This document shows, in pieces, positions 36,889 through 51,073 of a stretch of DNA of 64,000 nt; within the stretch, counting starts at the first letter, position 1, and every line of letters begins with the position of its first letter. Position numbers and translations under genes: made by a program. The DNA lies in contig WLPJ01000006.1 in assembly GCA_009698815.1 (NCBI GenBank), positions 55,081-119,080 on the forward strand, in the 5' to 3' direction. The DNA comes from Actinomycetota bacterium (lineage in GTDB: Bacteria; Actinomycetota; Actinomycetes; Nanopelagicales; Nanopelagicaceae). The notes beneath the pieces are model-generated. The model worked only from the letters and a program-made list of their open reading frames with translations. It was not told where the DNA came from and did not search any database.

Positions 36889-37093
36889 ACTACCCGCAAT
36901 TAATATTGTGAATATCGGCAAACATATCCGCCTCTCTCCCGGGGCGCTCCAGCACATAATCACCACACACCTGACAGAAGGCATGAAAGTAATAAACCCC
37001 AAGCTCTTCCATCCATTTGTAGTCATAGATAAATGAGACAACAACGGCGCCAAAATCTGGCAGTGACCGATGCCCGCGCGCACGATGGGCCGC
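36889..37093. repeat. 205-bp direct repeat, left copy
   Basis: Matches 50869-51073 with 5 mismatches counted by eye (36900, 36904, 36905, 36966, 37076). Confidence 0.95.
36890..37093 (-). pseudogene. Duplicated 3' fragment of the hypothetical gene 50870-51436
   Basis: Encodes ...AHRARGHRSLPDFG...FCQVCGDY...HNINCG-stop; no start and no 5' part. Confidence 0.85.
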
Positions 37094-37152
37094 GCTTTGT
37101 GGAGCTGACGAATTTACAGGAAACGGTGCATTACGCCCTAAACAAACATCTG

Positions 37153-38343
37153 CTATTTCACTCCAAGAAGATGTTCAAGTGCTAACTGATTTAATCTGAC
37201 AAAAGCAAAACCTTTACCGTTGAAATATTCATCCGTGTTAAATTCTTCAAATGAACTTTGGTCCGCAATTAGTTCATTGTAATTTTCACCTGGGTTTAAT
37301 GTAGGTATACTAATTTCAGATACTCTTGAATTCCGTAACGCTTGCTGAACTGCTGGATCCGCACGGAATACTTTGGAGCGCTCCTTGAAAATCAGATAGT
37401 TCCTCATATTTGCACGTGCAGAATCCCAAACTCCTTCGTAATCTTCGGTACGACTTGGCTTGTAATCGAAATGTCGAGGACCGTCATAAGCTGGAGTTCC
37501 ATTAGGACCAGAATTTTCCAGAAGATCAATAAGCGTGAAAGCATTCATAAGATCGCCGTGTCCAAATACTAAATCCTGATCATATTTGATTCCCCGTTGC
37601 CCGTTTAGATCTATATGAAATAACTTCTTATGTTCGATGGCCTGGGCAATTCCTGCTGTGAAGTTTAATCCTGCCATTTGCTCGTGCCCGACTTCAGGAT
37701 TTACCCCAAAAAGCTCAGGTCGATCTAGCGTGTTAATAAAAGCTATTGCATGACCTAGCGTCGGCAATAATATGTCGCCCCGTGGCTCGTTTGGCTTTGG
37801 CTCAATTGCAAATCTAATGTCATATTTTTTGTCTGTTACATATTCACCAAAGATGTTTAGCGCTTCTCTATATCTTTCAATGGCACCCGAAACATTCTTA
37901 GCATGGTCGTATTCCGCACCTTCACGGCCACCCCACATTACAAATGTCTTTGCGCCTAATTCAGCGCCGAGGTCTAGCTGTCGAAATGCTTTCCGCAATG
38001 AAAAGCGGCGCACCCCGCGGTCATTGGAAGTAAATGCACCATCTTTAAAGACGGGAGCGCTAAAGAGGTTAGTGGTGACCATCGGTATCTCTATCCCGGT
38101 CTCTGCCAGGATTTTCTTTAGCCGTTGGATCATGGTCTCTCGCTGCTGATTTGATGAGCCAAACGGGAATAAATCATCATCGTGGAAGGTCAGGCCATAC
38201 GCCCCAATTTCGGCCAATTTGGTCACGACATCCTCTATTTCAAGCCCTTTTCGAGTCGGCCCCCCAAAAGGGTCGGTGCCGTTATACCCCACGGTCCATA
38301 GCCCAAAGGAAAACTTGTCAGCCTTGGTCGGTGTCAGATACAT
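37153..38343 (-). CDS. xylA: Xylose isomerase (Actinobacteria-type)
   Basis: [53 protein letters not shown]. Start ATG 38343 with a GAGG RBS. Confidence 0.95.
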
Positions 38344-38587
38344 CTTGGACCTCAATCCTTTTTCAATAATTTGTTGATTAAAACTACAAACTAGCATAAG
38401 GGGAAGAAATATGGAATTTACCGGATGCCGCCACAATTGAACATGAGCGTCGATTGCCCAAATTACCTTGAAATCAAGCCCCATAGGATGAGATTTGTCG
38501 TATTTTGCCTTATATAGGTAAATAGCGCCACTCAGGATTATTTAAGTTTTTGGCGAAACTTGCGATAAATACTTGCCAATCTCTTGC

Positions 38588-38609
38588 ATATGTTGTTGCT
38601 TCAACATAT
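38588..38609. promoter_or_regulatory. Candidate operator in the xylA/ABC divergent region
   Basis: Perfect inverted repeat ATATGTTG-N6-CAACATAT. Confidence 0.5.
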
Positions 38610-38689
38610 TGTTTGCTCAAATGAATCGAGAGGTCTCCCGGCTTCCAGGTCAAACTGAAGAAATTAGATAGAAAGGGATAGGTGCCAAA

Positions 38690-40297
38690 ATGAGTTTTCC
38701 CACTGCTTTATCGACTACTCGGTCGGCCCCGATCATCCTTGATATTCGCCAAATTAGTAAGAGTTACCAGGGAGTGGCTGCACTTGAAAACGCGAGTCTT
38801 CAGGTTCGAAAAGGTGAAATCCATGCCGTCTTGGGCGGCAATGGAGCTGGCAAATCTACTTTGATTGGAATCCTCTCCGGAGTTACGCAACCAGATTCTG
38901 GAGAGTTTCTTCTAGAAGGCTCTGCACTAGCACCTCGAAATCCAAGGGACGCGATTAAGTCAGGTATTACCACTATCTACCAAGAGCTCTCTTTGGTACC
39001 CGCACTTACGACACTTGAAAATATCTTTCTAGGCCGGGAATTAATTATTGAGCGAGCAGGCATGAAGGTATTGCTAGATCGCAAAAAAATGAAAAATGAA
39101 GTTATTGAACTTGCCCAAATATTTGGAATATCAAAGGATGAGCTTGATATCCCGATTAGCGAATTTGGAGCTTTGAAAAAGAAAGTCATCGAGATTGTTA
39201 AAGCTTTGACTTTTGATGCTCGGATCTTAATTCTAGACGAACCAACGTCTGGCTTGGAAGAAGAAGAACGCCTTCACTTATTTGATCATATGCGTAATTT
39301 GCGTAGCAGAGGTGTCGGTCTCATTTGGGTAACCCATCATTTAGATGAACTTCATGGCCTTGCAGACGTTGCCACCATTTTCCGTGACGGCAGAACGCTT
39401 GAATCTCTAAATTTAGAAAATTCCACAGTAGGAGAAATTACAAACTTAATGTTTGGAATCCAATCAAATGAAGCAGGCTTGAGAACCAAAAATGATCGTT
39501 TACAAAAAGATGATAAGTCCAATAGACCTGAGGTTCTAAGTCTGCATGCAGTAAGTCGAGCAGGCGTGCTTCGAGATATCTCTTTTAGCTTGCATGCTGG
39601 TGAAGTTATAGGGATATCTGGATTGGCGGGCGCCGGCAGAACAGAGTTAGCAAGAGTGATCATGGGAATTGATACCCGAACTTCTGGTCAGATTTTTTTA
39701 AAGGGCAAGGAAGTTAATTTCAAATCATCTGCTTTTGCCTACAAAGCGGGTATCGCAATGCTCCCGGAAGATCGGAAGCAACTAGGAATTATTTCTGGCT
39801 TATCGGTTGCAGAAAACATTTCAATTTCTAATTTGTCAAGTGTCAGCAGGTTCGGATTTATCATAAGCCGGAAAAAAGAACGCGAATTAGCGACCAAGTA
39901 TAAAGAGATACTTTCAATTCGAACTCCAAGCGTAAATCAAAAGATAAACAATCTCAGTGGCGGAAGCCAGCAAAAAGCAATTGTCGCAAGATGTCTAAAT
40001 TCCAAGCCATCAGTTTTAATCATTGATGAGCCAACACAAGGTGTTGATGTTGCAGCAAAAACCGAAGTCCACGAACTTATTCGAGATTTTACCTCGAAAG
40101 GTGGGGCTGCAATAGTGATTGCATCTGAAATCCAAGAACTTCTAGAACTTTCTCACGAGATTTTAGTGCTCAGAAATGGCTCCATAGTAGGAAGAATTGA
40201 AAATGTTCAGAACTCTATAGAAAAGTCCCGAGTAGTAGAAATCAAAGCGGAAGTACTTGCTTTATCTGCCGGAAAAAGGTTAAAAAATGAAATTTAA
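38690..40297 (+). CDS. Monosaccharide ABC ATP-binding protein (CUT2, RbsA-like)
   Basis: Two NBDs: GGNGAGKS, LDEPT, LSGGSQQK, DEPTQGVD. Confidence 0.93.
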   Translation: MSFPTALSTTRSAPIILDIRQISKSYQGVAALENASLQVRKGEIHAVLGGNGAGKSTLIGILSGVTQPDSGEFLLEGSALAPRNPRDAIKSGITTIYQELSLVPALTTLENIFLGRELIIERAGMKVLLDRKKMKNEVIELAQIFGISKDELDIPISEFGALKKKVIEIVKALTFDARILILDEPTSGLEEEERLHLFDHMRNLRSRGVGLIWVTHHLDELHGLADVATIFRDGRTLESLNLENSTVGEITNLMFGIQSNEAGLRTKNDRLQKDDKSNRPEVLSLHAVSRAGVLRDISFSLHAGEVIGISGLAGAGRTELARVIMGIDTRTSGQIFLKGKEVNFKSSAFAYKAGIAMLPEDRKQLGIISGLSVAENISISNLSSVSRFGFIISRKKERELATKYKEILSIRTPSVNQKINNLSGGSQQKAIVARCLNSKPSVLIIDEPTQGVDVAAKTEVHELIRDFTSKGGAAIVIASEIQELLELSHEILVLRNGSIVGRIENVQNSIEKSRVVEIKAEVLALSAGKRLKNEI

Positions 40298-41300
40298 GAA
40301 TTTCTTTTTTCGAAGTGTCTCCATAACTGGAGTTCCAATTTTCGGTCTCCTAATCTTAATCGTGGCACTTTTTCAATTTGTTGTACCAATTTTTAATGCA
40401 ACAGTTGGCGACTACATCACAAATCTTGTTCCTGTTCTTTTACTCACCGTGGGTGCCGCAATTGTGATAATTGGTGGATCTATCGATCTATCAATCGGTA
40501 CAGTTTGTGGATTAAGTGCGGGAATAACAATGTGGACATTGGCGTCTGGTCTTCCAACCGCTTTATCAATTTTACTAGGCGTAGCGACAGGTACATTTTT
40601 TGGACTTCTCAATGGATTTCTTATTACAAAATTTGGAATAAATGACTTCATCGCGACATTAGCGACACTCAATATTTCCGGGGGATTACTCATCGTGTTG
40701 AGCCAGGCTACAGAGCTCTACGGAGCAGAATCTGAGTTTTTTACCTCTTTGGTATACGGCAGTTTCTTTGGTATCCCCACCTCATTTTTCATCGCGGGAG
40801 CAATCATTCTCTTGATGCAATTTTTGTTGCTCAAAACAATCTTGGGCAGAAGAATTTTTGCAATGGGAAATAGTGGAGCCGCTGCAAATGTCGCGGGAAT
40901 CAATGTTCGCAATGTAAAACTAGCGACCTTCGTATTATCAGGGACTCTGGCTGGTTGTGCTGGCGTGCTTTTGGCTTCAAGACTTGGTGGAGTTCAAGCC
41001 TTTCTGGGTCTTGGCTACGAATTTACGGCAATCGCAGGTGCGGTCGTAGGTGGCGTAAGTCTGGCAGGTGGACGAGGTTCGGCGGCGGCTGCCCTGGCTG
41101 GTGGTCTCTTCATCGGAACATTGGCACAAGGATTGCAACTTATAGGTGTCGAGCCAATCTTTTTCGGAATTGTGAGTGGTTTAGCACTGATTATCGGCGT
41201 CATCTTTGACCAAAAAATTCAGGATATTGGTCAATTGCGTTCGAGATTTGATAGCCGTGTTTTAGCACAACCTCCTCGAAAGGAGGGAGATCATGGCTAA
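40287..41300 (+). CDS. Monosaccharide ABC permease (CUT2)
   Basis: GSIDLSIG, FIATLA, GNSGAAANVAGI, YEFTAIAGAVVGG. Confidence 0.9.
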   Translation: MKFKNFFFRSVSITGVPIFGLLILIVALFQFVVPIFNATVGDYITNLVPVLLLTVGAAIVIIGGSIDLSIGTVCGLSAGITMWTLASGLPTALSILLGVATGTFFGLLNGFLITKFGINDFIATLATLNISGGLLIVLSQATELYGAESEFFTSLVYGSFFGIPTSFFIAGAIILLMQFLLLKTILGRRIFAMGNSGAAANVAGINVRNVKLATFVLSGTLAGCAGVLLASRLGGVQAFLGLGYEFTAIAGAVVGGVSLAGGRGSAAAALAGGLFIGTLAQGLQLIGVEPIFFGIVSGLALIIGVIFDQKIQDIGQLRSRFDSRVLAQPPRKEGDHG

Positions 41301-42294
41301 TCAAAGGTTTAACATTTCGATGAAAAAATTTTTGTCGGATCCTATTTTAGGTGTAATTATATTATTACTTCTCGTTGGTGGAGTTGCCTCATTTACTGTT
41401 GAAGTTTTCTTTACCTTACAAAACTTTACAAATTTCTTGAGTGGCAGCTATTTTGTGATGTTGTTAGCGATGGGAATGACCGTAGTTCTTATATCCGGCG
41501 GTATTGATTTATCTATTGGCGCCGTCATGGCCCTCTGTGCAGGAATTGTTGCAAAATTGGCCTTGCAAGGAATGTCGGTACCCTTAGTAATAGTTTGCGC
41601 ACTAGCAGTCGGCGCTTTCGTTGGTTGTCTCAATGGACTTCTTGTCACAGTTGTTGGCTTACCTGACTTCATAGCAACATTGGCAATGTCGGCTTTTGCC
41701 ACTGGAATTCTATTCATCTGGACTAAAGGCACCCCGATCGTGGGCTATATGGATGAGACTTACAAGCAAATCGGTGGGCTAGCTCCGATTTATCGCGAAG
41801 TGACAGTTCCTATGGTGATAGCAATAGTCGTTGCATTCGCTTTGGGAGCGATGTTGAAAAAAACCAAATTTGGAGTTCATCTTTTTTCAGTAGGAAGTAA
41901 CAGATTAGCGACGCGACAATCTGGAATAAATGTTACAAACATACGAATCTTGGCTTACGTGATTTCTGGAGTTTGTGCTGCTCTCAGTGGCATCATCATG
42001 GCTGGTCGAAATACCACGGTGCCACCAGATCTAGGGGGCGGTTATGAGGTTCTTGCAATAGCCGCCGCACTCATCGGAGGCGCAAGTCTGATGGGTGGTC
42101 GCGGACGAATACTGGGAGCAATACTGGGTGAAGTAGTACTTGCCATGACGATAAATATCATCAACCTTTTAGGTGTTCCGTCAAGCTATCAGAAAATTTT
42201 TATTGGTGGAATTTTGCTACTGGCAGTTTTAGTGAACCAGCTTGTCATCTCCTCGCGAACGAAAATATTGATGCGAAGTACAAATAAAAAATAA
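41293..42294 (+). CDS. Monosaccharide ABC permease (CUT2), second
   Basis: GGIDLSIG, PDFIATLA, GSNRLATRQSGI, YEVLAIAAALIGG. Confidence 0.9.
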   Translation: MANQRFNISMKKFLSDPILGVIILLLLVGGVASFTVEVFFTLQNFTNFLSGSYFVMLLAMGMTVVLISGGIDLSIGAVMALCAGIVAKLALQGMSVPLVIVCALAVGAFVGCLNGLLVTVVGLPDFIATLAMSAFATGILFIWTKGTPIVGYMDETYKQIGGLAPIYREVTVPMVIAIVVAFALGAMLKKTKFGVHLFSVGSNRLATRQSGINVTNIRILAYVISGVCAALSGIIMAGRNTTVPPDLGGGYEVLAIAAALIGGASLMGGRGRILGAILGEVVLAMTINIINLLGVPSSYQKIFIGGILLLAVLVNQLVISSRTKILMRSTNKK

Positions 42295-42365
42295 TAGATT
42301 TCTTCTACGTCGGGTAGAAGAATGCACTACAAGGATCATGAAAATGATCGAATGAAAGGATCGGA

Positions 42366-43514
42366 ATGAAAAGTACTATAAAAACAAAGACTTTGGTATT
42401 AGCTGTTATTGCCTCATTGGTGACCTTAACAATGACCGGAAGTGCCGCAAATGCCATAGGAACATTAAAACAAGACGCTCTAACAGGCACTTCGGCGACA
42501 GTTGACACTGCAGCTACAGATGCGGCAATCCGTAAATTGGTAAACGGTCGGACAATTAAGCTCGGCTTTGCTCCTCCGATCCTTTCTGAGGCTTACACCA
42601 TTGCACAACAGGGTGCATGGAACCAGATGAAAGATTACGAGACTCGGTACGGAGTAAAGTGGGTCTGGACAGAGGAAGCACCGCTGAATAATGCCCACTC
42701 CGGTGTGGAAACAACGGGCTTCATTCAGAACTATGTTGCCAAGAAGTATGACGCAGTGTTCGTATGCTCTGCTGCTCCGGCTGCAGTCATGCAACAGCTT
42801 TATAAGCAAGGTTCTGCGAAGGGTGTTGAGTTCTACCAGTTTAACTCAACGGAGCAGTTGAATCAGAAATCTCAAGCAACTGATGCAACAGCTGGCTTAT
42901 CTAGCGTGTCAAACATCAGTTATGACAATCGTTGGCAGTCCGGTGCTTTAGCAGCGCAATACATCGCTAAGGAACTTAAAGGAAAAGGCGAAATTATTAT
43001 GATCCTTGGGCCAGCAGGATCTGACTGGACAAAACTTCGCGAGCAGGGATTTAGAGCTGTCATTAAGAAGTTCCCTGGTCTTAAGATTGTTGGAGCCGCT
43101 GACGGTGGATACGTTCGCGATAAAGGCTTGACTGCTGCGGCAGACTTGTTGACCAAGTATCCAAAAATTAACGCTATCTACGGCGAAAATGAAGATATGG
43201 CACTTGGAGCATCAGCAGCAATCGACGCCGCGCGCTTGAAGCACTGGGATGGCAAGTCAGGAATCATCACTATCGGTGCTGATGGACTTGTTTCCGGTAT
43301 GGACGAAATCCGTAAAGGCAATCTGACTGCAACAGTAAATGTTGGTTATGCCGATATGGGTCGCACCATGATTCGTACCATGTTCGCACACAAAGTACTC
43401 GGCATGGATGTCGCTAAATTCATTCGAGTTCCAACAGTGATCGTCGACAAGAGCAATGTCGATATCTTCCAATCACAAATCAAGGCTGAGTTAGCCACAA
43501 AGGTTAAGTACTAG
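42366..43514 (+). CDS. Monosaccharide ABC substrate-binding protein (RbsB-like)
   Basis: Signal ending ANA; DNRWQSG, REQGF, AIYGENEDMALGA, IGADG. Confidence 0.88.
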   Translation: MKSTIKTKTLVLAVIASLVTLTMTGSAANAIGTLKQDALTGTSATVDTAATDAAIRKLVNGRTIKLGFAPPILSEAYTIAQQGAWNQMKDYETRYGVKWVWTEEAPLNNAHSGVETTGFIQNYVAKKYDAVFVCSAAPAAVMQQLYKQGSAKGVEFYQFNSTEQLNQKSQATDATAGLSSVSNISYDNRWQSGALAAQYIAKELKGKGEIIMILGPAGSDWTKLREQGFRAVIKKFPGLKIVGAADGGYVRDKGLTAAADLLTKYPKINAIYGENEDMALGASAAIDAARLKHWDGKSGIITIGADGLVSGMDEIRKGNLTATVNVGYADMGRTMIRTMFAHKVLGMDVAKFIRVPTVIVDKSNVDIFQSQIKAELATKVKY

Positions 43515-43520
43515 CCAGTA

Positions 43521-43563
43521 GTAGACGCCTGGCGCCGTAGTAATTACGACGCCAGGCATCTAC
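43521..43563. terminator. Long stem-loop after the binding-protein gene
   Basis: 19-bp stem with two C-A mismatches and a 5-nt loop. Confidence 0.55.
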
Positions 43564-43599
43564 ACCCTCAATAAAAAAGGAGTTAGAAGGGGAAATGAA

Positions 43600-45297
43600 A
43601 TGAACAAGTCGGGCACGTTAGATGCGGTTGATGTAGTCATTGTTGGATTAGGTGCTGGTGGTGGTCCCGCGGCAAAGGTATTGAGCGAGGCGGGTTACAC
43701 GGTTATTGGATTTGATAAAGGACCATGGTTGCGTCACGAAGAACACTATTCCGGAGACGAACTTAAGTTCCAAAACCGTAGCTACTTATGGCCAGATGTA
43801 AAACTTATGCCCCGCACTGTTCGCAGCGATGTAAATTCCAAAGCTAGAATTTTCAATTTCTCGCCTGTTCCCTCAAATGTTGGCGGCGGAACTAGCCACA
43901 TGGCTGGATGGACGCCAAGACCTAGACCGTCGGATTTTATTTTTAGAAGTCTCCATGGTGATTTACACGGCGCAAGTTTGGCTGATTGGCCATACCGATA
44001 CGAACATTTGGAACCATATCTCACCAAAGTTGAATGGGAGTATGGAATTTCAGGCTTAACCGGTGCTGAGAAAGGGGCAGGTTTTAGAAGCAAGCCTTAT
44101 CCAAGTGCTCCACTTCCTCCAACTCGATTTGGAAAAGCTTTCTATGACGCTTGCAAAAAACTTGATATTAACGCGTTCCCATTGCCGATGTCTCACATCA
44201 CCAAAGACAATGCATTGGGGCGAGAAGCAATAAATCGCACAAGTTTCTGGAATCAATATGGAGATCCTACGGCGACTCGATCAAGCGTAGCCACGACATT
44301 CATACCTGACGCGATCAAAACAGGAAATTTCGAAGTAAGGGCAAATTCCTTTGTAAAAGAAGTAATTGTTGATGATCAAGGGGTCGCAAAAGGCGTTATC
44401 TATGTAGATGAAGATGGCATAGAATTTCGACAAGAAGCGCGCGTCGTAATTCTTTCATTAGGCTCCATTGAATCTGCAAGATTGATGTTACTTTCTAAAT
44501 CTCGCAGATTCCCAGATGGGTTGGCTAATGATTCAGGACTAGTTGGAAAGAATGCGACATTCCACGAATACATTTTTGCAGTAGGACTTTTTGATAAAGA
44601 CTTTACTGATCCACTCTATGGATTTACCGGAAATTATCAAAGCGGTGGGTCAATGGAATTCTATGAAACAGATGAGAATCGTGGCCATATCGGTGGTGGC
44701 ATTATTGCAACCACACAAATTGGTCAACCAATTAACATGATTATGCCAGGCAAGCCTAGTTGGGGTCAGGCTGCAAAAGATTCGGATCGAGATTTCTTCA
44801 ATTACTCAATGAAAATAGGTTTCATCCTTCAGGATATGCCTCAGGAAAGTAATCGAGTTGATTTGGATCCTGATGTGAAAGATATGTGGGGGCTTCCCGT
44901 TGCACGAATTACAAATAAGCCTCACATAAACGACACGGCGATGAGCCGCTGGCAGATCAACAAAAATGTCGAAATCCTTGAGGCAGCCGGCGCTATTCGC
45001 ACTATGCCGGTTTATCTGGGCGATGAATTCACTGGAAATTCCTGCCATCAGCAAGGTTCTGTGCGTATGGGAGTAGATCCTAGAAAGTCTGTACTAAATG
45101 AATGGGGTCAAGCTCATTCTGCTGAGAACGTTTTTGTATTAGATGGTGCAGGTTTTCCAACCGCAATGGGAGTAAATCCAACTCTAACAATCATGGCTCA
45201 CTCTTGGCGCTGTGCTGATTACATCGCCAAAGTTTATCTAAAGGGCAGAACTGAGAAAACTGTTCTTGAACCGCTTAAAAATTTAGGGAGGAAATAA
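43600..45297 (+). CDS. GMC family flavoprotein oxidoreductase (gluconate 2-dehydrogenase alpha-like)
   Basis: VGLGAGG, GGGTSHMAG, HQQGSVRMG, NPTLTI (His/Asn catalytic pair). Confidence 0.9.
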   Translation: MNKSGTLDAVDVVIVGLGAGGGPAAKVLSEAGYTVIGFDKGPWLRHEEHYSGDELKFQNRSYLWPDVKLMPRTVRSDVNSKARIFNFSPVPSNVGGGTSHMAGWTPRPRPSDFIFRSLHGDLHGASLADWPYRYEHLEPYLTKVEWEYGISGLTGAEKGAGFRSKPYPSAPLPPTRFGKAFYDACKKLDINAFPLPMSHITKDNALGREAINRTSFWNQYGDPTATRSSVATTFIPDAIKTGNFEVRANSFVKEVIVDDQGVAKGVIYVDEDGIEFRQEARVVILSLGSIESARLMLLSKSRRFPDGLANDSGLVGKNATFHEYIFAVGLFDKDFTDPLYGFTGNYQSGGSMEFYETDENRGHIGGGIIATTQIGQPINMIMPGKPSWGQAAKDSDRDFFNYSMKIGFILQDMPQESNRVDLDPDVKDMWGLPVARITNKPHINDTAMSRWQINKNVEILEAAGAIRTMPVYLGDEFTGNSCHQQGSVRMGVDPRKSVLNEWGQAHSAENVFVLDGAGFPTAMGVNPTLTIMAHSWRCADYIAKVYLKGRTEKTVLEPLKNLGRK

Positions 45298-45300
45298 AAT

Positions 45301-46062
45301 ATGATCTCGAAATCTGAGTGGGAAATTGTTCCCCTAACTATCGATCCGGACTCAAGTAAAAAGCTTTTCTTTACTGATCATGAGTGGGAAACTATTGAAG
45401 CCGCAGCCGCACGAATCATTCCAACTGATCATGATCCTGGAGCAAAAGAAGCACGAGTAATCGTCTTCATCGATCGTTACCTATCAGGAATTGACTACGT
45501 GTATGCCGCGGCAGATGGAAGTGGTTTTTTGCGAATGTCTGGACGAGATGCGACTGCCGCTAGAGTCAGTAATGAAATATTTAAGGCTATGTACCGTGAA
45601 GGAGTCAAAGACTTAGATCACTTAGCGGGTGAATTTGGATCCAAAAATTTTAAGGAGAGTCCTGCAGAGACTCAAGATAGAATTTTGGAGAAGTTAAGTG
45701 GTAGGCCGAAACCAGAACCTATTCGTTTTGATATCCACGAAGTTTATTACTCTCGCCTTCAAGGAAATACCGATCAAGATAAAACTTTCTTCGACACTCT
45801 TTGTTTGCATGTTCGCCAAGGTTTTTATTCTGATCCGGTATATGGCGGTAACAAAGATCAAATTGGCTGGAAAGTCATCGGCTTCCCTGGTCCAAAGTCC
45901 CTCAAAGACACAATTGATGGTACCTACACAACTGACCCGTACTTCGTCCATGACGTGAGTTGGCCAGAACTCCTGTTGGACTTCAAGGGCGTTGCAGTAT
46001 GCAAAGTTTCGTGTGCCACCGAAGGAGGTGTCTGCTGCGGGAAATTAGAGATAGAGAGTTAG
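45301..46062 (+). CDS. Gluconate 2-dehydrogenase subunit 3 (gamma)-like protein
   Basis: AAAARIIPTD..PGAKEARV..FIDRYL, GFYSDPVYGGN, GWKVIGFPG; no twin-Arg signal. Confidence 0.88.
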   Translation: MISKSEWEIVPLTIDPDSSKKLFFTDHEWETIEAAAARIIPTDHDPGAKEARVIVFIDRYLSGIDYVYAAADGSGFLRMSGRDATAARVSNEIFKAMYREGVKDLDHLAGEFGSKNFKESPAETQDRILEKLSGRPKPEPIRFDIHEVYYSRLQGNTDQDKTFFDTLCLHVRQGFYSDPVYGGNKDQIGWKVIGFPGPKSLKDTIDGTYTTDPYFVHDVSWPELLLDFKGVAVCKVSCATEGGVCCGKLEIES

Positions 46063-46116
46063 CACCGGGGATAAAAAAGAAAATAAATTAATTTCAAACT
46101 AACGAAAGGGCATAAA

Positions 46117-46845
46117 ATGTCAACGCATCAAGAGAAACTGGATAAGTATGTGGATCGTTCCAACAGAATTATCCCAAACAAGATTGATCTAAAGCGAACT
46201 GTTGTTCACTGCTTGGATATTCAAAATCTTTGCCTATCCAAGAAAGGCTCTGACTACGTAGAAAGCGTGGGAGGAGCGCCTTCAGGAGAAGAAACGTTAG
46301 TTCAAGCAAAAAAGGTTTTGGATTTAGCGAGAGAAAAAGGAATCACTGTCAATTGGTCTATGTGGGGTATGGACCCAAATGGCTATGACATCGGAATTTG
46401 GGGATTGAAGTATCCATCTTGGCGTAAGCCAGATTCACCTTTTAATCACGGAACATTCGATGGTGCCCTCTGTGACGGGTTTGTACCGGCTAAAGGTGAG
46501 GCTCTATTGAAAAAACATCGTAATAGCAGCTTCTTTGAAACTGCATTTAATTCATGGCTACTCGAGGCAAAATGTGAATATTTAGTTATCAATGGATCAT
46601 CTACTGGTAATTGCGTACCCACAACTGCACGCGATGGTTTTGAATTGGGATATAAAGTCATCGTACTTGCCGACTCTGGAACTGCGATTCCTCTAAATCG
46701 TGGAGGTCGCAATCCAGCTTATGACAAAGATACTCCAGAAGGTTACGGTCAATACTGGGAAGGCTTGCGCAACATGCAAGCTCAATACGCTGATGTCATG
46801 TCAACAGCAGAGTTTATTGATCTTGTAAATAATTCATCAAATTGA
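46117..46845 (+). CDS. Isochorismatase/cysteine hydrolase family protein
   Basis: LDIQN, KHRNSSF, STGNCVPTTARDG: Asp-Lys-Cys triad pattern. Confidence 0.85.
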   Translation: MSTHQEKLDKYVDRSNRIIPNKIDLKRTVVHCLDIQNLCLSKKGSDYVESVGGAPSGEETLVQAKKVLDLAREKGITVNWSMWGMDPNGYDIGIWGLKYPSWRKPDSPFNHGTFDGALCDGFVPAKGEALLKKHRNSSFFETAFNSWLLEAKCEYLVINGSSTGNCVPTTARDGFELGYKVIVLADSGTAIPLNRGGRNPAYDKDTPEGYGQYWEGLRNMQAQYADVMSTAEFIDLVNNSSN

Positions 46846-46860
46846 TGGTGGGGGAGGTGA

Positions 46861-46894
46861 GCTACCTCGAAGTTGTTTACAACTTCGAGGTAGC
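46861..46894. terminator. Perfect 16-bp inverted repeat between the hydrolase and AKR genes
   Basis: GCTACCTCGAAGTTGT-TT-ACAACTTCGAGGTAGC. Confidence 0.6.
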
Positions 46895-46928
46895 AAACTT
46901 TCAGTGAATTGGAAGGAGGTGTTTGCGT

Positions 46929-47927
46929 ATGTCTAAAATTTCAGTAAGAGCGAAATTTGGTGGACAGAACTGGGATTCAACGATCTTGGGTTTTGGAACC
47001 GTGCCTCTAGGTAATTTTGGCAAGCCTATGGATTCTTCCACTGCTCATAATTTGATTGAAAGAGCCTGGGATGACGGAGTGCGTTTTTTCGATACTGCCC
47101 CTATGTATGGACACGGGCTAGCGGAATATCGTTTAATGGATTTTCTACTCAACAAGAAAAGGGAAGATTATCAATTAGTAACAAAGGTAGGGAGAACGTT
47201 ACTTCCAGCAAAACCTGGAACTTTCGATTCTGCTCCTTGGGTTGATACACCCCCATTTAAAATTGAATTTGATTACTCTTATGACGGCGTTATGCGTCAA
47301 GTTGAAGATAGCCTGCAGAGATTAGGCACATACTATTTAGATGTCGTATTGATTCACGACACAGATAGATGGACTCATGGAGATGATTACCAAGCAAGAT
47401 TCGATGAAGCGGTTGCTGGGGCAGCTAAAGCGCTTGTCAAATTGAGAGATGAAAAAGTAGTAAAGGCTATAGGGTTTGGAGTAAATGAAGTTGATGTTTG
47501 TTTGAGCGCTTTAGATCAAGTAGATGTCAATGCATTTTTAATCGCTGGCACTTACACATTGTTAAATCAAAGTGCTGGCCGGGAATTGTTACCAAGGTGC
47601 CATGCTCGCGGAGTAGGCATTATCAACGGTCGAGTCTTCGGTTCTGGGATTCTAGCAACCGGTTCAGCAGAGGGTGCCAAATTTGATTATGCGGTTGCTC
47701 CTCGGGAGATTGTCGCAAAAGTGCAAAAATTTGAAGAAGTTTGTAAATCATATGAAATCTCATTAGGTGCTGCAGCAATTCAATTTGCAGCAAGGGGACC
47801 TGCGATAGCAAACGTTTGTATAGGATCGCGAACCATTGAACAACAAACTGAGAGCTATGCCTGGTTTGAACAATCAATACCAGATGAATTTTGGGCAGAG
47901 TTAAAGAAAAAGCAATTGATCGAATAG
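46929..47927 (+). CDS. Aldo/keto reductase (AKR15-like: L-fucose/D-threo-aldose/pyridoxal dehydrogenase group)
   Basis: LGFGTVPLGN, FDTAPMYGHG, TKVGR, FDYSYDG, IHD. ATG 46929 fits the GGAGG spacing. Confidence 0.88.
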   Translation: MSKISVRAKFGGQNWDSTILGFGTVPLGNFGKPMDSSTAHNLIERAWDDGVRFFDTAPMYGHGLAEYRLMDFLLNKKREDYQLVTKVGRTLLPAKPGTFDSAPWVDTPPFKIEFDYSYDGVMRQVEDSLQRLGTYYLDVVLIHDTDRWTHGDDYQARFDEAVAGAAKALVKLRDEKVVKAIGFGVNEVDVCLSALDQVDVNAFLIAGTYTLLNQSAGRELLPRCHARGVGIINGRVFGSGILATGSAEGAKFDYAVAPREIVAKVQKFEEVCKSYEISLGAAAIQFAARGPAIANVCIGSRTIEQQTESYAWFEQSIPDEFWAELKKKQLIE

Positions 47928-47968
47928 CAGCACCACTAATACCAATAACAATGGAGAGGAACTAGAAA

Positions 47969-48367
47969 ATGTTTACGGAGTTAAAACATATTGCGCAGTT
48001 AGCGGAAGAGACTGCTAGTAAAATGGGGCTTGGAGTCGTAGTTAGTATCGTGGATGTCCATGGAAATGCGGCGTTGCTTCATCGGATGGATAAGGCACCT
48101 ATGCATTCACTAGAGATGGCTTTTAGAAAAGCCTATACCGCGGCTACTTTCAACGTTGTCACCGAAGACCTAACTGAAAAAGTTCAGCCGAATGCACCAC
48201 TATTTGGGCTTGCTGTTAATTCCGGAAGCAAATTGATTGCATTCGGTGGCGGTGCTCCATTTATAGTTTCAACAGGTGAACGTTACGGAATTGGAATTTC
48301 AGGTGGTACGACTGAAGAAGATATTGACATAATGCGCGCTGCAGTATCTGCCTTTAATAAACGTTAA
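47969..48367 (+). CDS. GlcG/HbpS family heme-binding protein
   Basis: VSIVDVHGN, RKAYTA, FGGGAP, GIGISGGT...D. Confidence 0.88.
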   Translation: MFTELKHIAQLAEETASKMGLGVVVSIVDVHGNAALLHRMDKAPMHSLEMAFRKAYTAATFNVVTEDLTEKVQPNAPLFGLAVNSGSKLIAFGGGAPFIVSTGERYGIGISGGTTEEDIDIMRAAVSAFNKR

Positions 48368-48368
48368 A

Positions 48369-49394
48369 TTATTCTGCGGAGAATTTATGAATCGTTTTGT
48401 GAAAATATTCCTGATCCGGTTTTAAGACTATCGATTGTAAGTCTGGCAAGACCTGGTTATCTATCACTCGCTGTGTTTCGATGCAGATCGAATTGCCTTG
48501 ACCATATTTAATTCCGTGCCTACCCTTCAAATCTCCCAAACGATTTGCTGAGTAAACTTGCAAGGAAGGTTCAGTGGTTGTTATTGTCATTTTTCGGCCA
48601 CTGGTTGGGTCATAAAGTATTGCTGACTCTGTTAATTCGCCAGTCGTTTTATTCGAAAGAACGAAAGTATTATCAATACCTGGCCAAGGTTCAGTTGGAT
48701 TCGTAGGTAGTGAATGAGCAATTTTGGTAAGCTTTTTAAAATCCATCCCAGATTCGGCACAAGATAAGTACCCACCTGCAGGTAGCAATTGAGCATCCAT
48801 CTTGATTATTTTGTCCGCATTAATCTGCAATTCGTGATCTAGAACGCTAGTTGCACCTGCATCATGAAGGTTCCAATAGATGTGATTTGTTATATTTACA
48901 GGAGTATCTAACGAGGCTTTGGCTGAATATTCGAAAATCAATTCATTTATATTTGTGAGAGAACAAGTAAGCGCAACGGACAAATCTCCCGGATATCCGC
49001 CTTCTCCAGATTTACTCTCATATGAGAACTGCACTGCTTGAGATCCTGCAACTTCACATAATTCGCTCGACCAGAAAACTCTATCAAGTGATTTCTCTTT
49101 ACCTCCGTGTAAGTGGTTTCCCCCTTCATTGACCATCAATTGAAATCTAAGGCGGCCTCCATTGAAAACACCCTTGGAAATTCTTCCCGCAACCCGCCCA
49201 AGAGTGGCACCAAAATAGTTTCCAACATTTATTACATACTCTTCATGAGTATTAAATCCAAGCACAACATTAGAACAATTACCGATCCTGTCTGGGACCA
49301 TTAACTCAATAAGTCGCGCTCCAAAATTGGAAAAAGTGGCCTTCATTCCATTGGAGTTCTCAATTACAAATTCTTTGTTCAGAATCCGAACCAC
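48369..49394 (-). CDS. galM: Aldose 1-epimerase (mutarotase)
   Basis: GRVAGRI, NHLHGG, GYPG, NITNHIYWNL, CIETQ. Confidence 0.9.
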   Translation of the reverse strand: MVRILNKEFVIENSNGMKATFSNFGARLIELMVPDRIGNCSNVVLGFNTHEEYVINVGNYFGATLGRVAGRISKGVFNGGRLRFQLMVNEGGNHLHGGKEKSLDRVFWSSELCEVAGSQAVQFSYESKSGEGGYPGDLSVALTCSLTNINELIFEYSAKASLDTPVNITNHIYWNLHDAGATSVLDHELQINADKIIKMDAQLLPAGGYLSCAESGMDFKKLTKIAHSLPTNPTEPWPGIDNTFVLSNKTTGELTESAILYDPTSGRKMTITTTEPSLQVYSANRLGDLKGRHGIKYGQGNSICIETQRVIDNQVLPDLQSIVLKPDQEYFHKTIHKFSAE

Positions 49395-49406
49395 CTTTTC
49401 TATGGC

Positions 49407-50618
49407 TTAATTAATCTTACTCTTAGTAAATTCTGGACCCGCAGGGTCATATAAAAAATTCATGAATACCAGTTCTGCCGCCCCAAGGACGACTTGGTTT
49501 ACGCCAAGTGCTGCGCGACTGATTCGGACAGACTCGTAACTTGGTTTTAAAGTGTTTATTGCAACAATTTTTTGAACTTTCTTGGTGTCCATACTGTAAA
49601 TAGTTCCCAAAAATCCACCAAGAATAATCAATTCGGGATTTAGCAAGTTAATAAAGTTTGAAATCGCCAATGCCAGATACTCCAACTGTCTTCCGACTTC
49701 ACTTAATACTGCATGAGACTTGGAGGTGCGTAGGGCATAATCAAATTGATCATAATCTGCAATTTTTAAATTTAGTAGAGATAGAAGCTTCTCTCTCGAG
49801 ACCTCTGCTTCCACCGTGCCCACCACATTGGCAGAATCCACACCACCAGTTAATGCAACTCTGGTATGGCCCATCTCGCCTGCATAACCTTTATGACCTC
49901 TCATTAATTGCCCACCGGAAACGATTCCGCCAGCAATACCGCTAGAACCGCCATTGATAAAGACCATATCTTTTATGCCAACACCAGAGCCAAATACCTG
50001 CTCAGCTAAAGTACTTAAGAACGCTTCATTTCCCGCCGAGGTTTTAAACCCTGTGGAGCTTTCAATAAGCTGAATTATAGATACTTCTTTCCATTCCAGG
50101 TGGTGCGAAGATCCAATTAATCCATCTTCTTTCCGAATTAACTCCGGTATAGCAAGACCGATTCCAATAATTTGGAAATTTTCTTTGGAAACACTAGTTA
50201 GACCATCAATGATTGCATTTGTAATTTTTATTGTTTCAGCAATAGTAGGAGCACCAGTTGTTTCAAATCTTGATTGTTTGTGAACATAACCTCCAAGCCC
50301 AATTACCCCAATATTAACTGCATCACTTTCTGGGTTCACAGCTATCGCTATTGCATTTTGATTTGCCACCACCACCGTACTTGGTCGTCCAACTCTTTTG
50401 TTTTTCTTATCCGAAATTTCATTTACTAAACCCTGTGAAGTCAATTCTCCGATTAGTGCAGAGATTGTTGATCGATTAAGCCCAGTTCTTATGGAAAGAT
50501 CTGATCTGGATATAGAGCGTTCATGATGGACGATCTTTAGAACTGTTGAAATATTGAACCGTCTTAAGTCGTCGAGATTATTACCTGCGGACAAATTTCC
50601 CGGTGGCGTAAGCTTCAA
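49407..50618 (-). CDS. ROK family transcriptional regulator (XylR-like)
   Basis: SRSDLSIRTGLNRSTIS HTH, GRPS, GYAGEMGH; the CxCG Zn motif is absent (GGVDSANVVGTVE). Confidence 0.9.
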   Translation of the reverse strand: MKLTPPGNLSAGNNLDDLRRFNISTVLKIVHHERSISRSDLSIRTGLNRSTISALIGELTSQGLVNEISDKKNKRVGRPSTVVVANQNAIAIAVNPESDAVNIGVIGLGGYVHKQSRFETTGAPTIAETIKITNAIIDGLTSVSKENFQIIGIGLAIPELIRKEDGLIGSSHHLEWKEVSIIQLIESSTGFKTSAGNEAFLSTLAEQVFGSGVGIKDMVFINGGSSGIAGGIVSGGQLMRGHKGYAGEMGHTRVALTGGVDSANVVGTVEAEVSREKLLSLLNLKIADYDQFDYALRTSKSHAVLSEVGRQLEYLALAISNFINLLNPELIILGGFLGTIYSMDTKKVQKIVAINTLKPSYESVRISRAALGVNQVVLGAAELVFMNFLYDPAGPEFTKSKIN

Positions 50619-50868
50619 ATTTCCTCCGGTTAATTGCCGTAGATTTTGAACAATAGAATCTTTTAAAAAGTCTGTTAAAGCATCAATAATAGCATGGGCT
50701 GGATCTCGAAACTAGTCAATGTAGACCAGATTATTGGGACTACACGGGCAATTTATCGGGACTCGCATATGATTTTTTGACACTTATAGTTTCGAACACT
50801 TGATACAAATTTTTAATGATCCGAAAGTATCGACAGTTCGCATTAGTGTTTATTTAAAGTTAACGGAG

Positions 50869-51073
50869 ACTACCCGCAACTAACGTTGTGAATATCGGCA
50901 AACATATCCGCCTCTCTCCCGGGGCGCTCCAGCACATAATCACCATACACCTGACAGAAGGCATGAAAGTAATAAACCCCAAGCTCTTCCATCCATTTGT
51001 AGTCATAGATAAATGAGACAACAACGGCGCCAAAATCTGGCAGTGACCGATGCCCACGCGCACGATGGGCCGC
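50869..51073. repeat. 205-bp direct repeat, right copy
   Basis: Begins 1 nt beyond the stop codon of 50870-51436 and matches 36889-37093. Confidence 0.95.

Follow-up and report, generated by a model that had tools for sequence, protein, structure and literature searches.

The 64,000-nucleotide stretch analyzed here (contig WLPJ01000006.1 of the actinobacterial assembly GCA_009698815.1, family Nanopelagicaceae; hereafter the window) encodes an alpha/gamma pair related to the membrane-bound sugar dehydrogenases of the "FAD-dependent dehydrogenase complex" family, comprising a catalytic GMC flavoprotein (alpha) and a small subunit of the so-called hitch-hiker type (gamma). Judged from its sequence, the pair is probably an intact, soluble and cytoplasmic two-subunit flavoenzyme from a widespread, uncharacterized clade of this family, working as an FAD-only sugar oxidoreductase that is re-oxidized directly. 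The family itself is known; its cytoplasmic, cluster-free clade appears undescribed in the literature that we found.

Results and discussion

The cluster-binding loop of the alpha subunit has lost its cysteines

Both GMC domains were detected in the alpha subunit above their Pfam cut-offs (PF00732, 38.8 bits; PF05199, 70.4 bits), together with a Rossmann GxGxxG motif (VVIVGLGAGGG, residues 12–22), and the gamma subunit scored 98 bits against a cut-off of 23.4 for the Gluconate_2-dh3 domain (PF13618). Alpha residues 7–543 aligned with the large subunit of fructose dehydrogenase (FDH) from Gluconobacter (7w2j_A) and with the alpha subunit of the FAD-dependent glucose dehydrogenase (FADGDH) from Burkholderia cepacia (6a2u_B), with E values of about 1e-32. 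The likeness to these enzymes, whose family also includes gluconate (GADH), 2-ketogluconate and sorbitol dehydrogenases, covers the full-length alpha subunit, the catalytic histidine and asparagine of the GMC superfamily at the re-face of the flavin (His483 and Asn526, each aligned with its FDH counterpart), the histidine that carries the flavin and the adjoining gene for an obligatory Gluconate_2-dh3 small subunit. In FADGDH the FAD is bound covalently through His105 (PMC6719666), and the equivalent His100 is the predicted site of covalent FAD attachment in the present enzyme.

The resemblance ends at the Cys-rich loop. In FADGDH, Cys212, Cys218 and Cys222 of this loop hold a 3Fe-4S cluster, whose only role is to hand electrons from FAD to the cytochrome subunit, and Cys213 forms a disulfide with gamma Cys152 (PMC6719666). 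The corresponding stretch of FDH, GRPQCCGNNNCMPICP, aligned with alpha residues 207–229, GREAINRTSFWNQYGDPTATRSS, where the loop is present and every cysteine is replaced. A search of 1.8 billion representative proteins returned 13,276 relatives, and nearly all of the full-length ones sharing 30–40% identity carry GRxxCxxCxxCxxxxC at this place (e.g. GRPACVNCGFCSGHGC and GRPACVNCGFCSGHGCPINAK). The loop of the query is as long as that of the Cys-bearing relatives and keeps the same flanks (G-R, F, Y-G, P, K/R-S), the four cysteines being swapped one for one for I211, T214, W217 and D222. A preliminary description of the window, made from the DNA letters without database searches, had quoted the motif GRxACxxCGxCxxxGC for gluconate-dehydrogenase-type alpha subunits and claimed that all four of its Cys positions are replaced here. 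The motif agrees with that of the relatives, and the alignment proposed as a check places it in the same loop of the query. Relocation of the motif within the alpha subunit was considered and rejected, because the whole protein has just three cysteines (185, 482 and 538), scattered far apart and none of them invariant. Without a Cys-rich loop, the alpha subunit is predicted to have no 3Fe-4S cluster.

The pair lacks an export signal and a cytochrome partner

Complexes of the FADGDH/FDH/GADH type are periplasmic and membrane-bound, with a twin-arginine (Tat) leader on the small subunit and a multiheme cytochrome c, whereas the present pair has neither of these and is predicted to be cytoplasmic and soluble. 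No Tat or Sec leader was found on either subunit. The gamma N-terminus, MISKSEWEIVPLTIDPDSSKKLFFTDHEW (MISKSEWEIV...), begins about 20 residues ahead of the conserved FFTDHEW and includes neither an RR pair nor a hydrophobic stretch; in a Tat-bearing relative, the RR leader lies at the place where the query gamma has just these 20 residues. The alpha subunit contains neither a transmembrane segment nor a signal peptide, and its maximum hydropathy (1.45) falls on the Rossmann motif. Tat export would have been open to the pair, since a tatC gene is present in the host genome. As for the cytochrome, CxxCH occurs in no open reading frame (ORF) of at least 60 aa across the window, and the sole diheme ORF of the host genome sits on another contig. 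A gamma-like partner without twin arginines and the lack of a nearby cytochrome c gene, both noted in the preliminary description, are thereby confirmed; with leader, ligands and cytochrome absent together, its interpretation of the pair as a cytoplasmic variant of the Tat-exported Fe-S dehydrogenases of the GMC/small-subunit type is supported. The features of the pair and of its operon are compiled in Table 1.

Table 1 Features of the alpha/gamma pair and of the surrounding operon, with positions in the window.
Feature	Position	Strand	Basis
Alpha, GMC flavoprotein, catalytic subunit, 565 aa	43600..45297	+	Pfam GMC_oxred_N/C; full-length match to FDH and FADGDH alpha
Gamma, small subunit ("hitch-hiker" type), 253 aa, Gluconate_2-dh3 domain	45301..46062	+	Pfam, E 7e-28
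His100 codon, counterpart of the covalent-FAD His105 in FADGDH	43897..43899	+	Alignment with FDH GGTTWHW; 81/81
Loop GREAINRTSFWNQYGDPTATRSS, residues 207–229, in place of the Cys-rich 3Fe-4S-binding loop	44218..44286	+	Alignments; D222 81/81
His483 codon, catalytic GMC active-site histidine	45046..45048	+	Aligns with the FDH residue mutated in 8k6j ("H1147A"); 80/81
Asn526 codon, second active-site residue, GVNPT motif	45175..45177	+	Aligns with FDH VNSTLT; 79/81
Gamma C-terminal Cys4 tail CKVSCATEGGVCCG, residues 234–247	46000..46041	+	Cys and GG kept in 80–94%-identical homologues
CUT2-type sugar ABC importer (ATPase, two permeases, secreted binding protein), operon head	38690..43514	+	ORFs; Peripla_BP_4
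Isochorismatase-family hydrolase, next operon gene after gamma	46117..46845	+	Pfam
Aldo/keto reductase, same operon	46923..47927	+	Pfam
GlcG/HbpS-like protein (heme-binding family), last operon gene	47969..48367	+	Pfam HbpS-like, E 3e-27

The Cys-free loop defines a conserved clade

A pattern scan of species genomes yielded 277 loci, of which 80 were fetched; conservation is given below for these loci or for the 81 sequences that they form with the query. The Cys motif was missing from the loop in all 81 sequences, which represent Actinomycetota, Bacillota, Alphaproteobacteria and Verrucomicrobiota. Arg208, Gly221, Asp222 and Ser228 of the replacement loop are invariant, Trp217 is found in 74 of the sequences and Thr214 in 71, and the catalytic residues and the FAD histidine are likewise conserved (Table 1). 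The most similar alpha homologues come from metagenomes (up to 90% identity) and from Microbacterium, Salinibacterium and Nakamurella (80%), followed at 50–65% by proteins from Pseudonocardia, Micromonospora, Paenibacillus, Bacillus, Ensifer, Mameliella and Verrucomicrobiota. The gamma gene adjoins the alpha gene in 78 of the 80 loci. None of the gammas in these loci has an RR leader, those of Alphaproteobacteria and Verrucomicrobiota included, and they start about 20 residues before FF(T/S)xHEW. Similarly, no ORF with at least two CxxCH motifs was found within 10 kb in any of the 80 loci. The loss of Fe-S ligands, Tat signal and cytochrome, which the preliminary description had attributed to this pair, is thus real but is not a local event, being shared by all 81 members examined, from four phyla.

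A phylogenetic tree of representatives was constructed with FastTree (midpoint-rooted, a quick run without support analysis), in which the Cys-free sequences (the query, P0021, P0241, P0242, P0365 and P0312) formed a single clade nested among Cys-bearing clades. Because of this nesting, and because the distant FDH and FADGDH also have the cysteines, the loss of the cluster is derived and ancient, and "lost", as the ligands had been described, is an apt word. A second, small pair of Cys-free sequences (P0336 and P0375), which are fused proteins of about 758 aa with the loop G(L/R)PATxYxxWAxGxGS, was placed on another branch. As these sit apart from the main Cys-free clade, the cluster was lost at least twice.

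Fusions of the two subunits were found in both orders (L072:8492-10975 from Agrococcus sp. KRD186, P0241, P0242, P0255, P0294 and others). Within the Cys-free clade, alpha-gamma fusions are encoded by the Agrococcus genome (827 aa) and by a metagenomic representative (810 aa), and many gamma-alpha fusions of 690–780 aa occur among the relatives, with a Tat leader in P0255 and P0294. Several gamma-alpha fusions (P0295, P0300 and P0331) keep the four loop cysteines yet begin at the gamma domain and are leaderless, which makes Tat loss and Cys loss separable events.

The nearest Tat-exported, Cys-bearing pairs, at 35–40% identity, occur for example in Myxococcota; the Cys-bearing loci were obtained with a five-sequence alignment that returned Myxococcota only (L087–L166), a 15-sequence alignment having given no usable conserved stretch. 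These pairs share the two-gene layout, the loop length and the flanks (GR...F...YG.P...(K/R)S) with the query but keep three or four loop cysteines where the query has none. Their gammas carry a Tat leader in 58 of 62 loci, and this leader often precedes a Cys, which resembles a lipoprotein signal. A multiheme neighbor was seen in only 2 of the 80 Myxococcota loci, so that even cluster-bearing relatives do not always have a cytochrome c partner. The query gamma shares 26% identity with a Tat-bearing Myxococcota gamma across the whole domain, with two insertions, and is about twice as long as the small subunits of the FADGDH/FDH type; a further difference from that type is that the query genes stand behind an ABC importer.

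Could the pair instead be a decaying or catalytically dead relic that has shed its cofactor site and its partners? The joint absence of three hallmark features would be expected of such a relic, but the replacement loop is conserved over four phyla together with the FAD histidine and the catalytic residues, and the gene order is conserved as well. Moreover, the two genes are translationally coupled, as the gamma ATG lies 3 nt past the alpha stop codon and a GGGAGG ribosome-binding site is located within the alpha 3' end. The gamma subunit, with a mean column identity of 62%, is under purifying selection: compared with an 80%-identical homologue, 97 codon differences are synonymous and 50 non-synonymous. 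A pseudogene was accordingly rejected on the codon-difference pattern and the conserved residues, and we regard the relic as extremely improbable. The strong conservation of the replacement loop, above all of Asp222 and Trp217, argues for a settled alternative design and not for decay. The clade offers a natural experiment on the removal of the 3Fe-4S relay from a direct-electron-transfer dehydrogenase, and a natural cluster-free version is relevant to the engineering of FAD-glucose and fructose dehydrogenases for biosensors.

Proposed direct re-oxidation of the flavin and the likely acceptor

In the proposed mechanism, a sugar or sugar derivative would enter the cell via the ABC importer, and its hydroxyl group would be oxidized on the FAD. 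Since the relay through the cluster is lost, the reduced FAD would have to meet its acceptor directly, and this would be a small diffusible molecule. The former cluster pocket is probably filled by the bulky loop with Trp217 and Asp222, together with Trp104.

Plausible functional analogues are the glycoside 3-oxidoreductases, which are Tat-exported, whereas the substrate of the present pair would be imported. The glycoside 3-oxidoreductases (FAD-GO/glucoside 3-dehydrogenase of Rhizobium sp. GIN611 and Agrobacterium) also combine a GMC protein with a small subunit, act as oxidants of a hydroxyl group on the sugar ring and reportedly use O2 for their regeneration (PMC4650693). Bacterial pyranose oxidase and C-glycoside 3-oxidase (CarA, PsG3Ox; 7qf8, 7dve) are GMC sugar oxidases of Actinomycetota that likewise contain a single FAD and no Fe-S cluster and are cytoplasmic or soluble, but they have no small subunit, unlike the query, and their PDB matches cover the C-terminal domain only (E 1e-10 to 1e-9). 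Membership in this group was rejected, as the query scored 43.4 bits against a TIGR02462 cut-off of 544.9, again in the C-terminal part only.

By analogy, O2 is tentatively put forward as the most likely acceptor, which would yield H2O2; it is our first choice because a covalent flavin is usually of high potential and because regeneration by O2 has been reported for the related glycoside oxidoreductases. A quinone is the next candidate, a possible acceptor that we rate somewhat below O2. A quinone is also the terminus of a rival account, in which the pair is a peripheral-membrane respiratory dehydrogenase whose FAD reduces either menaquinone directly or a different carrier encoded elsewhere, for instance an electron-transfer flavoprotein or a ferredoxin, with little or no H2O2 formed. 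Such a role would suit the relatives of the pair, which are dehydrogenases and not oxidases (PMC6719666), and would suit the lack of a conserved catalase or peroxidase gene beside the pair. The alpha subunit, however, has no membrane segment or amphipathic anchor, and no carrier gene is conserved across the 80 loci. Choline dehydrogenase is a precedent for a cytoplasmic GMC enzyme that feeds quinones, and menaquinone is, to our knowledge, the only quinone expected in Actinomycetota; covalently bound FAD, on the other hand, usually has a high potential and is thus a poor match for menaquinone. On balance, we consider a respiratory dehydrogenase rather unlikely.

Several points weigh against the favored directly re-oxidized, FAD-only sugar oxidoreductase. 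Reactivity with O2 is not readable from sequence, and a soluble protein acceptor may be encoded elsewhere. The conserved neighbors, i.e. an isochorismatase-like hydrolase and, in 43 of the 80 loci, a DJ-1/PfpI protein, match no textbook pathway. Neither a published characterization of the cytoplasmic, cluster-free clade nor biochemical data for any member were found, subscription journals lying outside the coverage. The AlphaFold2 model of the alpha subunit (15-sequence alignment) had a mean predicted local distance difference test (pLDDT) value of 58, with 31–36 in the loop region, and was too poor to place the loop; that of the gamma subunit (34 sequences; pLDDT 68) was too poor to place its tail. 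A Foldseek comparison of the gamma model, itself poor, with the PDB gave nothing under E = 1, and the solved gamma chains were not recovered from the PDB by sequence and profile searches, whether these started from the query gamma, from a gamma profile or from a Myxococcota gamma.

The small subunit and its four-cysteine tail

The gamma subunit is tightly conserved, coupled to alpha and sometimes fused with it, yet it lacks a Tat signal, which indicates that the role of the "hitch-hiker" subunit goes beyond export and is structural or concerned with assembly. It was probably retained because alpha needs it for folding and stability, and not for export.

The gamma C-terminus reads VAVCKVSCATEGGVCCGKLEIES, with the motif CKVSCx6CCG (Cys234, Cys238, Cys245 and Cys246), as the preliminary description had reported of this end. 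The four cysteines and the GG are unchanged in homologues of 80–94% identity, while the residues in between vary. The tail is absent from orthologues with about 80% alpha identity and the same operon (Microbacteriaceae and elsewhere); in most clade members gamma ends earlier or with an unrelated tail, and one homologue (P0146) has another, different Cys-rich tail. The enzyme thus works without the tail, since the tail-less orthologues have the same operon, and the distribution suggests a feature that is kept in one lineage, the closest low-GC relatives, and is dispensable to the enzyme type. It is probably a lineage-specific addition that could form a putative Zn or Fe site. Being limited to these relatives and missing from the 80%-identical orthologues, it is not a general replacement of the cluster. 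The earlier suggestion that a metal site had moved to the gamma tail is hinted at by the conservation of the four cysteines and by the two-Cys C-terminal tails (CLRECG or CGGGKGC) in 47 of the 62 Myxococcota loci, but it does not extend to the orthologues without a tail.

A stronger version of that suggestion holds that in this lineage the tail holds a metal ion or an Fe-S centre close to the flavin and acts as a new relay, perhaps to the GlcG/HbpS-like heme protein. Fixation of the cysteines among variable flanking residues, the different Cys-rich tail of P0146 and the GlcG-like gene within the operon would all fit such a relay, as would the frequency of two-Cys tails in Fe-S-bearing relatives. 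The bond between a gamma Cys and the alpha Cys loop of FADGDH lies next to the cluster (PMC6719666), so that the gamma C-terminus is plausibly near the former cluster site. The same-operon orthologues, however, manage without the tail, and neither the tail nor GlcG is present in most of the clade. Furthermore, C-x3-C-x6-CC matches no known cluster motif, the model confidence is low for the tail, and a structural Zn site explains the conservation of the cysteines equally well. The relay therefore appears improbable. Slightly less probable still is its most specific form, in which the place of the ancestral 3Fe-4S cluster, at the alpha/gamma interface, would be taken by a new metal or Fe-S centre formed by the Cys4 tail of the island-bearing freshwater low-GC lineage. 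The electron exit from the FAD would then be rebuilt on another subunit, perhaps towards the GlcG/HbpS-like protein. If true, a redox cofactor site would here have moved from one subunit of an enzyme to the other.

Operon, genomic island and host

In addition to the genes listed in Table 1, a divergent xylose isomerase gene lies upstream of the operon, and convergent genes for an aldose 1-epimerase and a ROK regulator lie downstream. In 61 of the 80 loci, homologues of the ABC importer lay no more than 10 kb from the GMC pair, and in 53 an isochorismatase-family hydrolase was near the pair. The aldo/keto reductase was confined to the closest syntenic loci (9/80), and the GlcG/HbpS-like gene was kept in the syntenic ones (12/80). 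The DJ-1/PfpI gene mentioned above stands directly upstream of the GMC gene in the loci that have it and is absent from the window. Rarer companions include a PfkB sugar-acid kinase and a GntR regulator. The importer, the hydrolase and DJ-1/PfpI together resemble a conserved catabolic module around the GMC pair. The GlcG/HbpS-like protein is the sole candidate heme protein near an enzyme without its cytochrome partner.

The pair marks a conserved, putative cytoplasmic sugar-oxidation route of soil and freshwater bacteria, with an ABC importer, an isochorismatase-like hydrolase and often DJ-1/PfpI. As a speculation, the aldo/keto reductase, the epimerase and the xylose isomerase would carry out an oxidize-then-reduce conversion to a xylose- or glucose-type product; equally speculative is that the DJ-1/PfpI neighbors of other loci fit the handling of a reactive keto-aldose.

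Genes in exactly the order of the window were found in Microcella, Salinibacterium, other Microbacteriaceae, Nocardioides and Pseudarthrobacter, where alpha is about 80% identical, and also in low-GC (41.5%) metagenome contigs (L083–L085); the Microbacteriaceae are high in GC. The alpha/gamma pair was found in none of 36 same-genus genomes, from which the entire operon region (36889-51073) is missing. This is consistent with a rare accessory island that is exchanged between actinobacterial lineages, and here the sugar-oxidation route is borne on such an island of an abundant lake actinobacterium.

The host is a streamlined actinobacterium with a genome of 1.35 Mb and about 45% G+C. Two more GMC-family genes are present in the genome (C22:45556-45765 and C18:50815-50979), and neither is accompanied by a small-subunit gene, as the single PF13618 match of a profile search of the genome is that of the alpha/gamma pair. 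In databases, genes of this kind are labelled "GMC family oxidoreductase" and "gluconate 2-dehydrogenase subunit 3 family protein". Finally, an inverted repeat, GACGCCTGGCG ... CGCCAGGC, lies at 43520-43565 between the genes for the binding protein and the GMC subunit, and may form an intra-operon stem-loop that sets the ratio of the binding protein to the downstream products.

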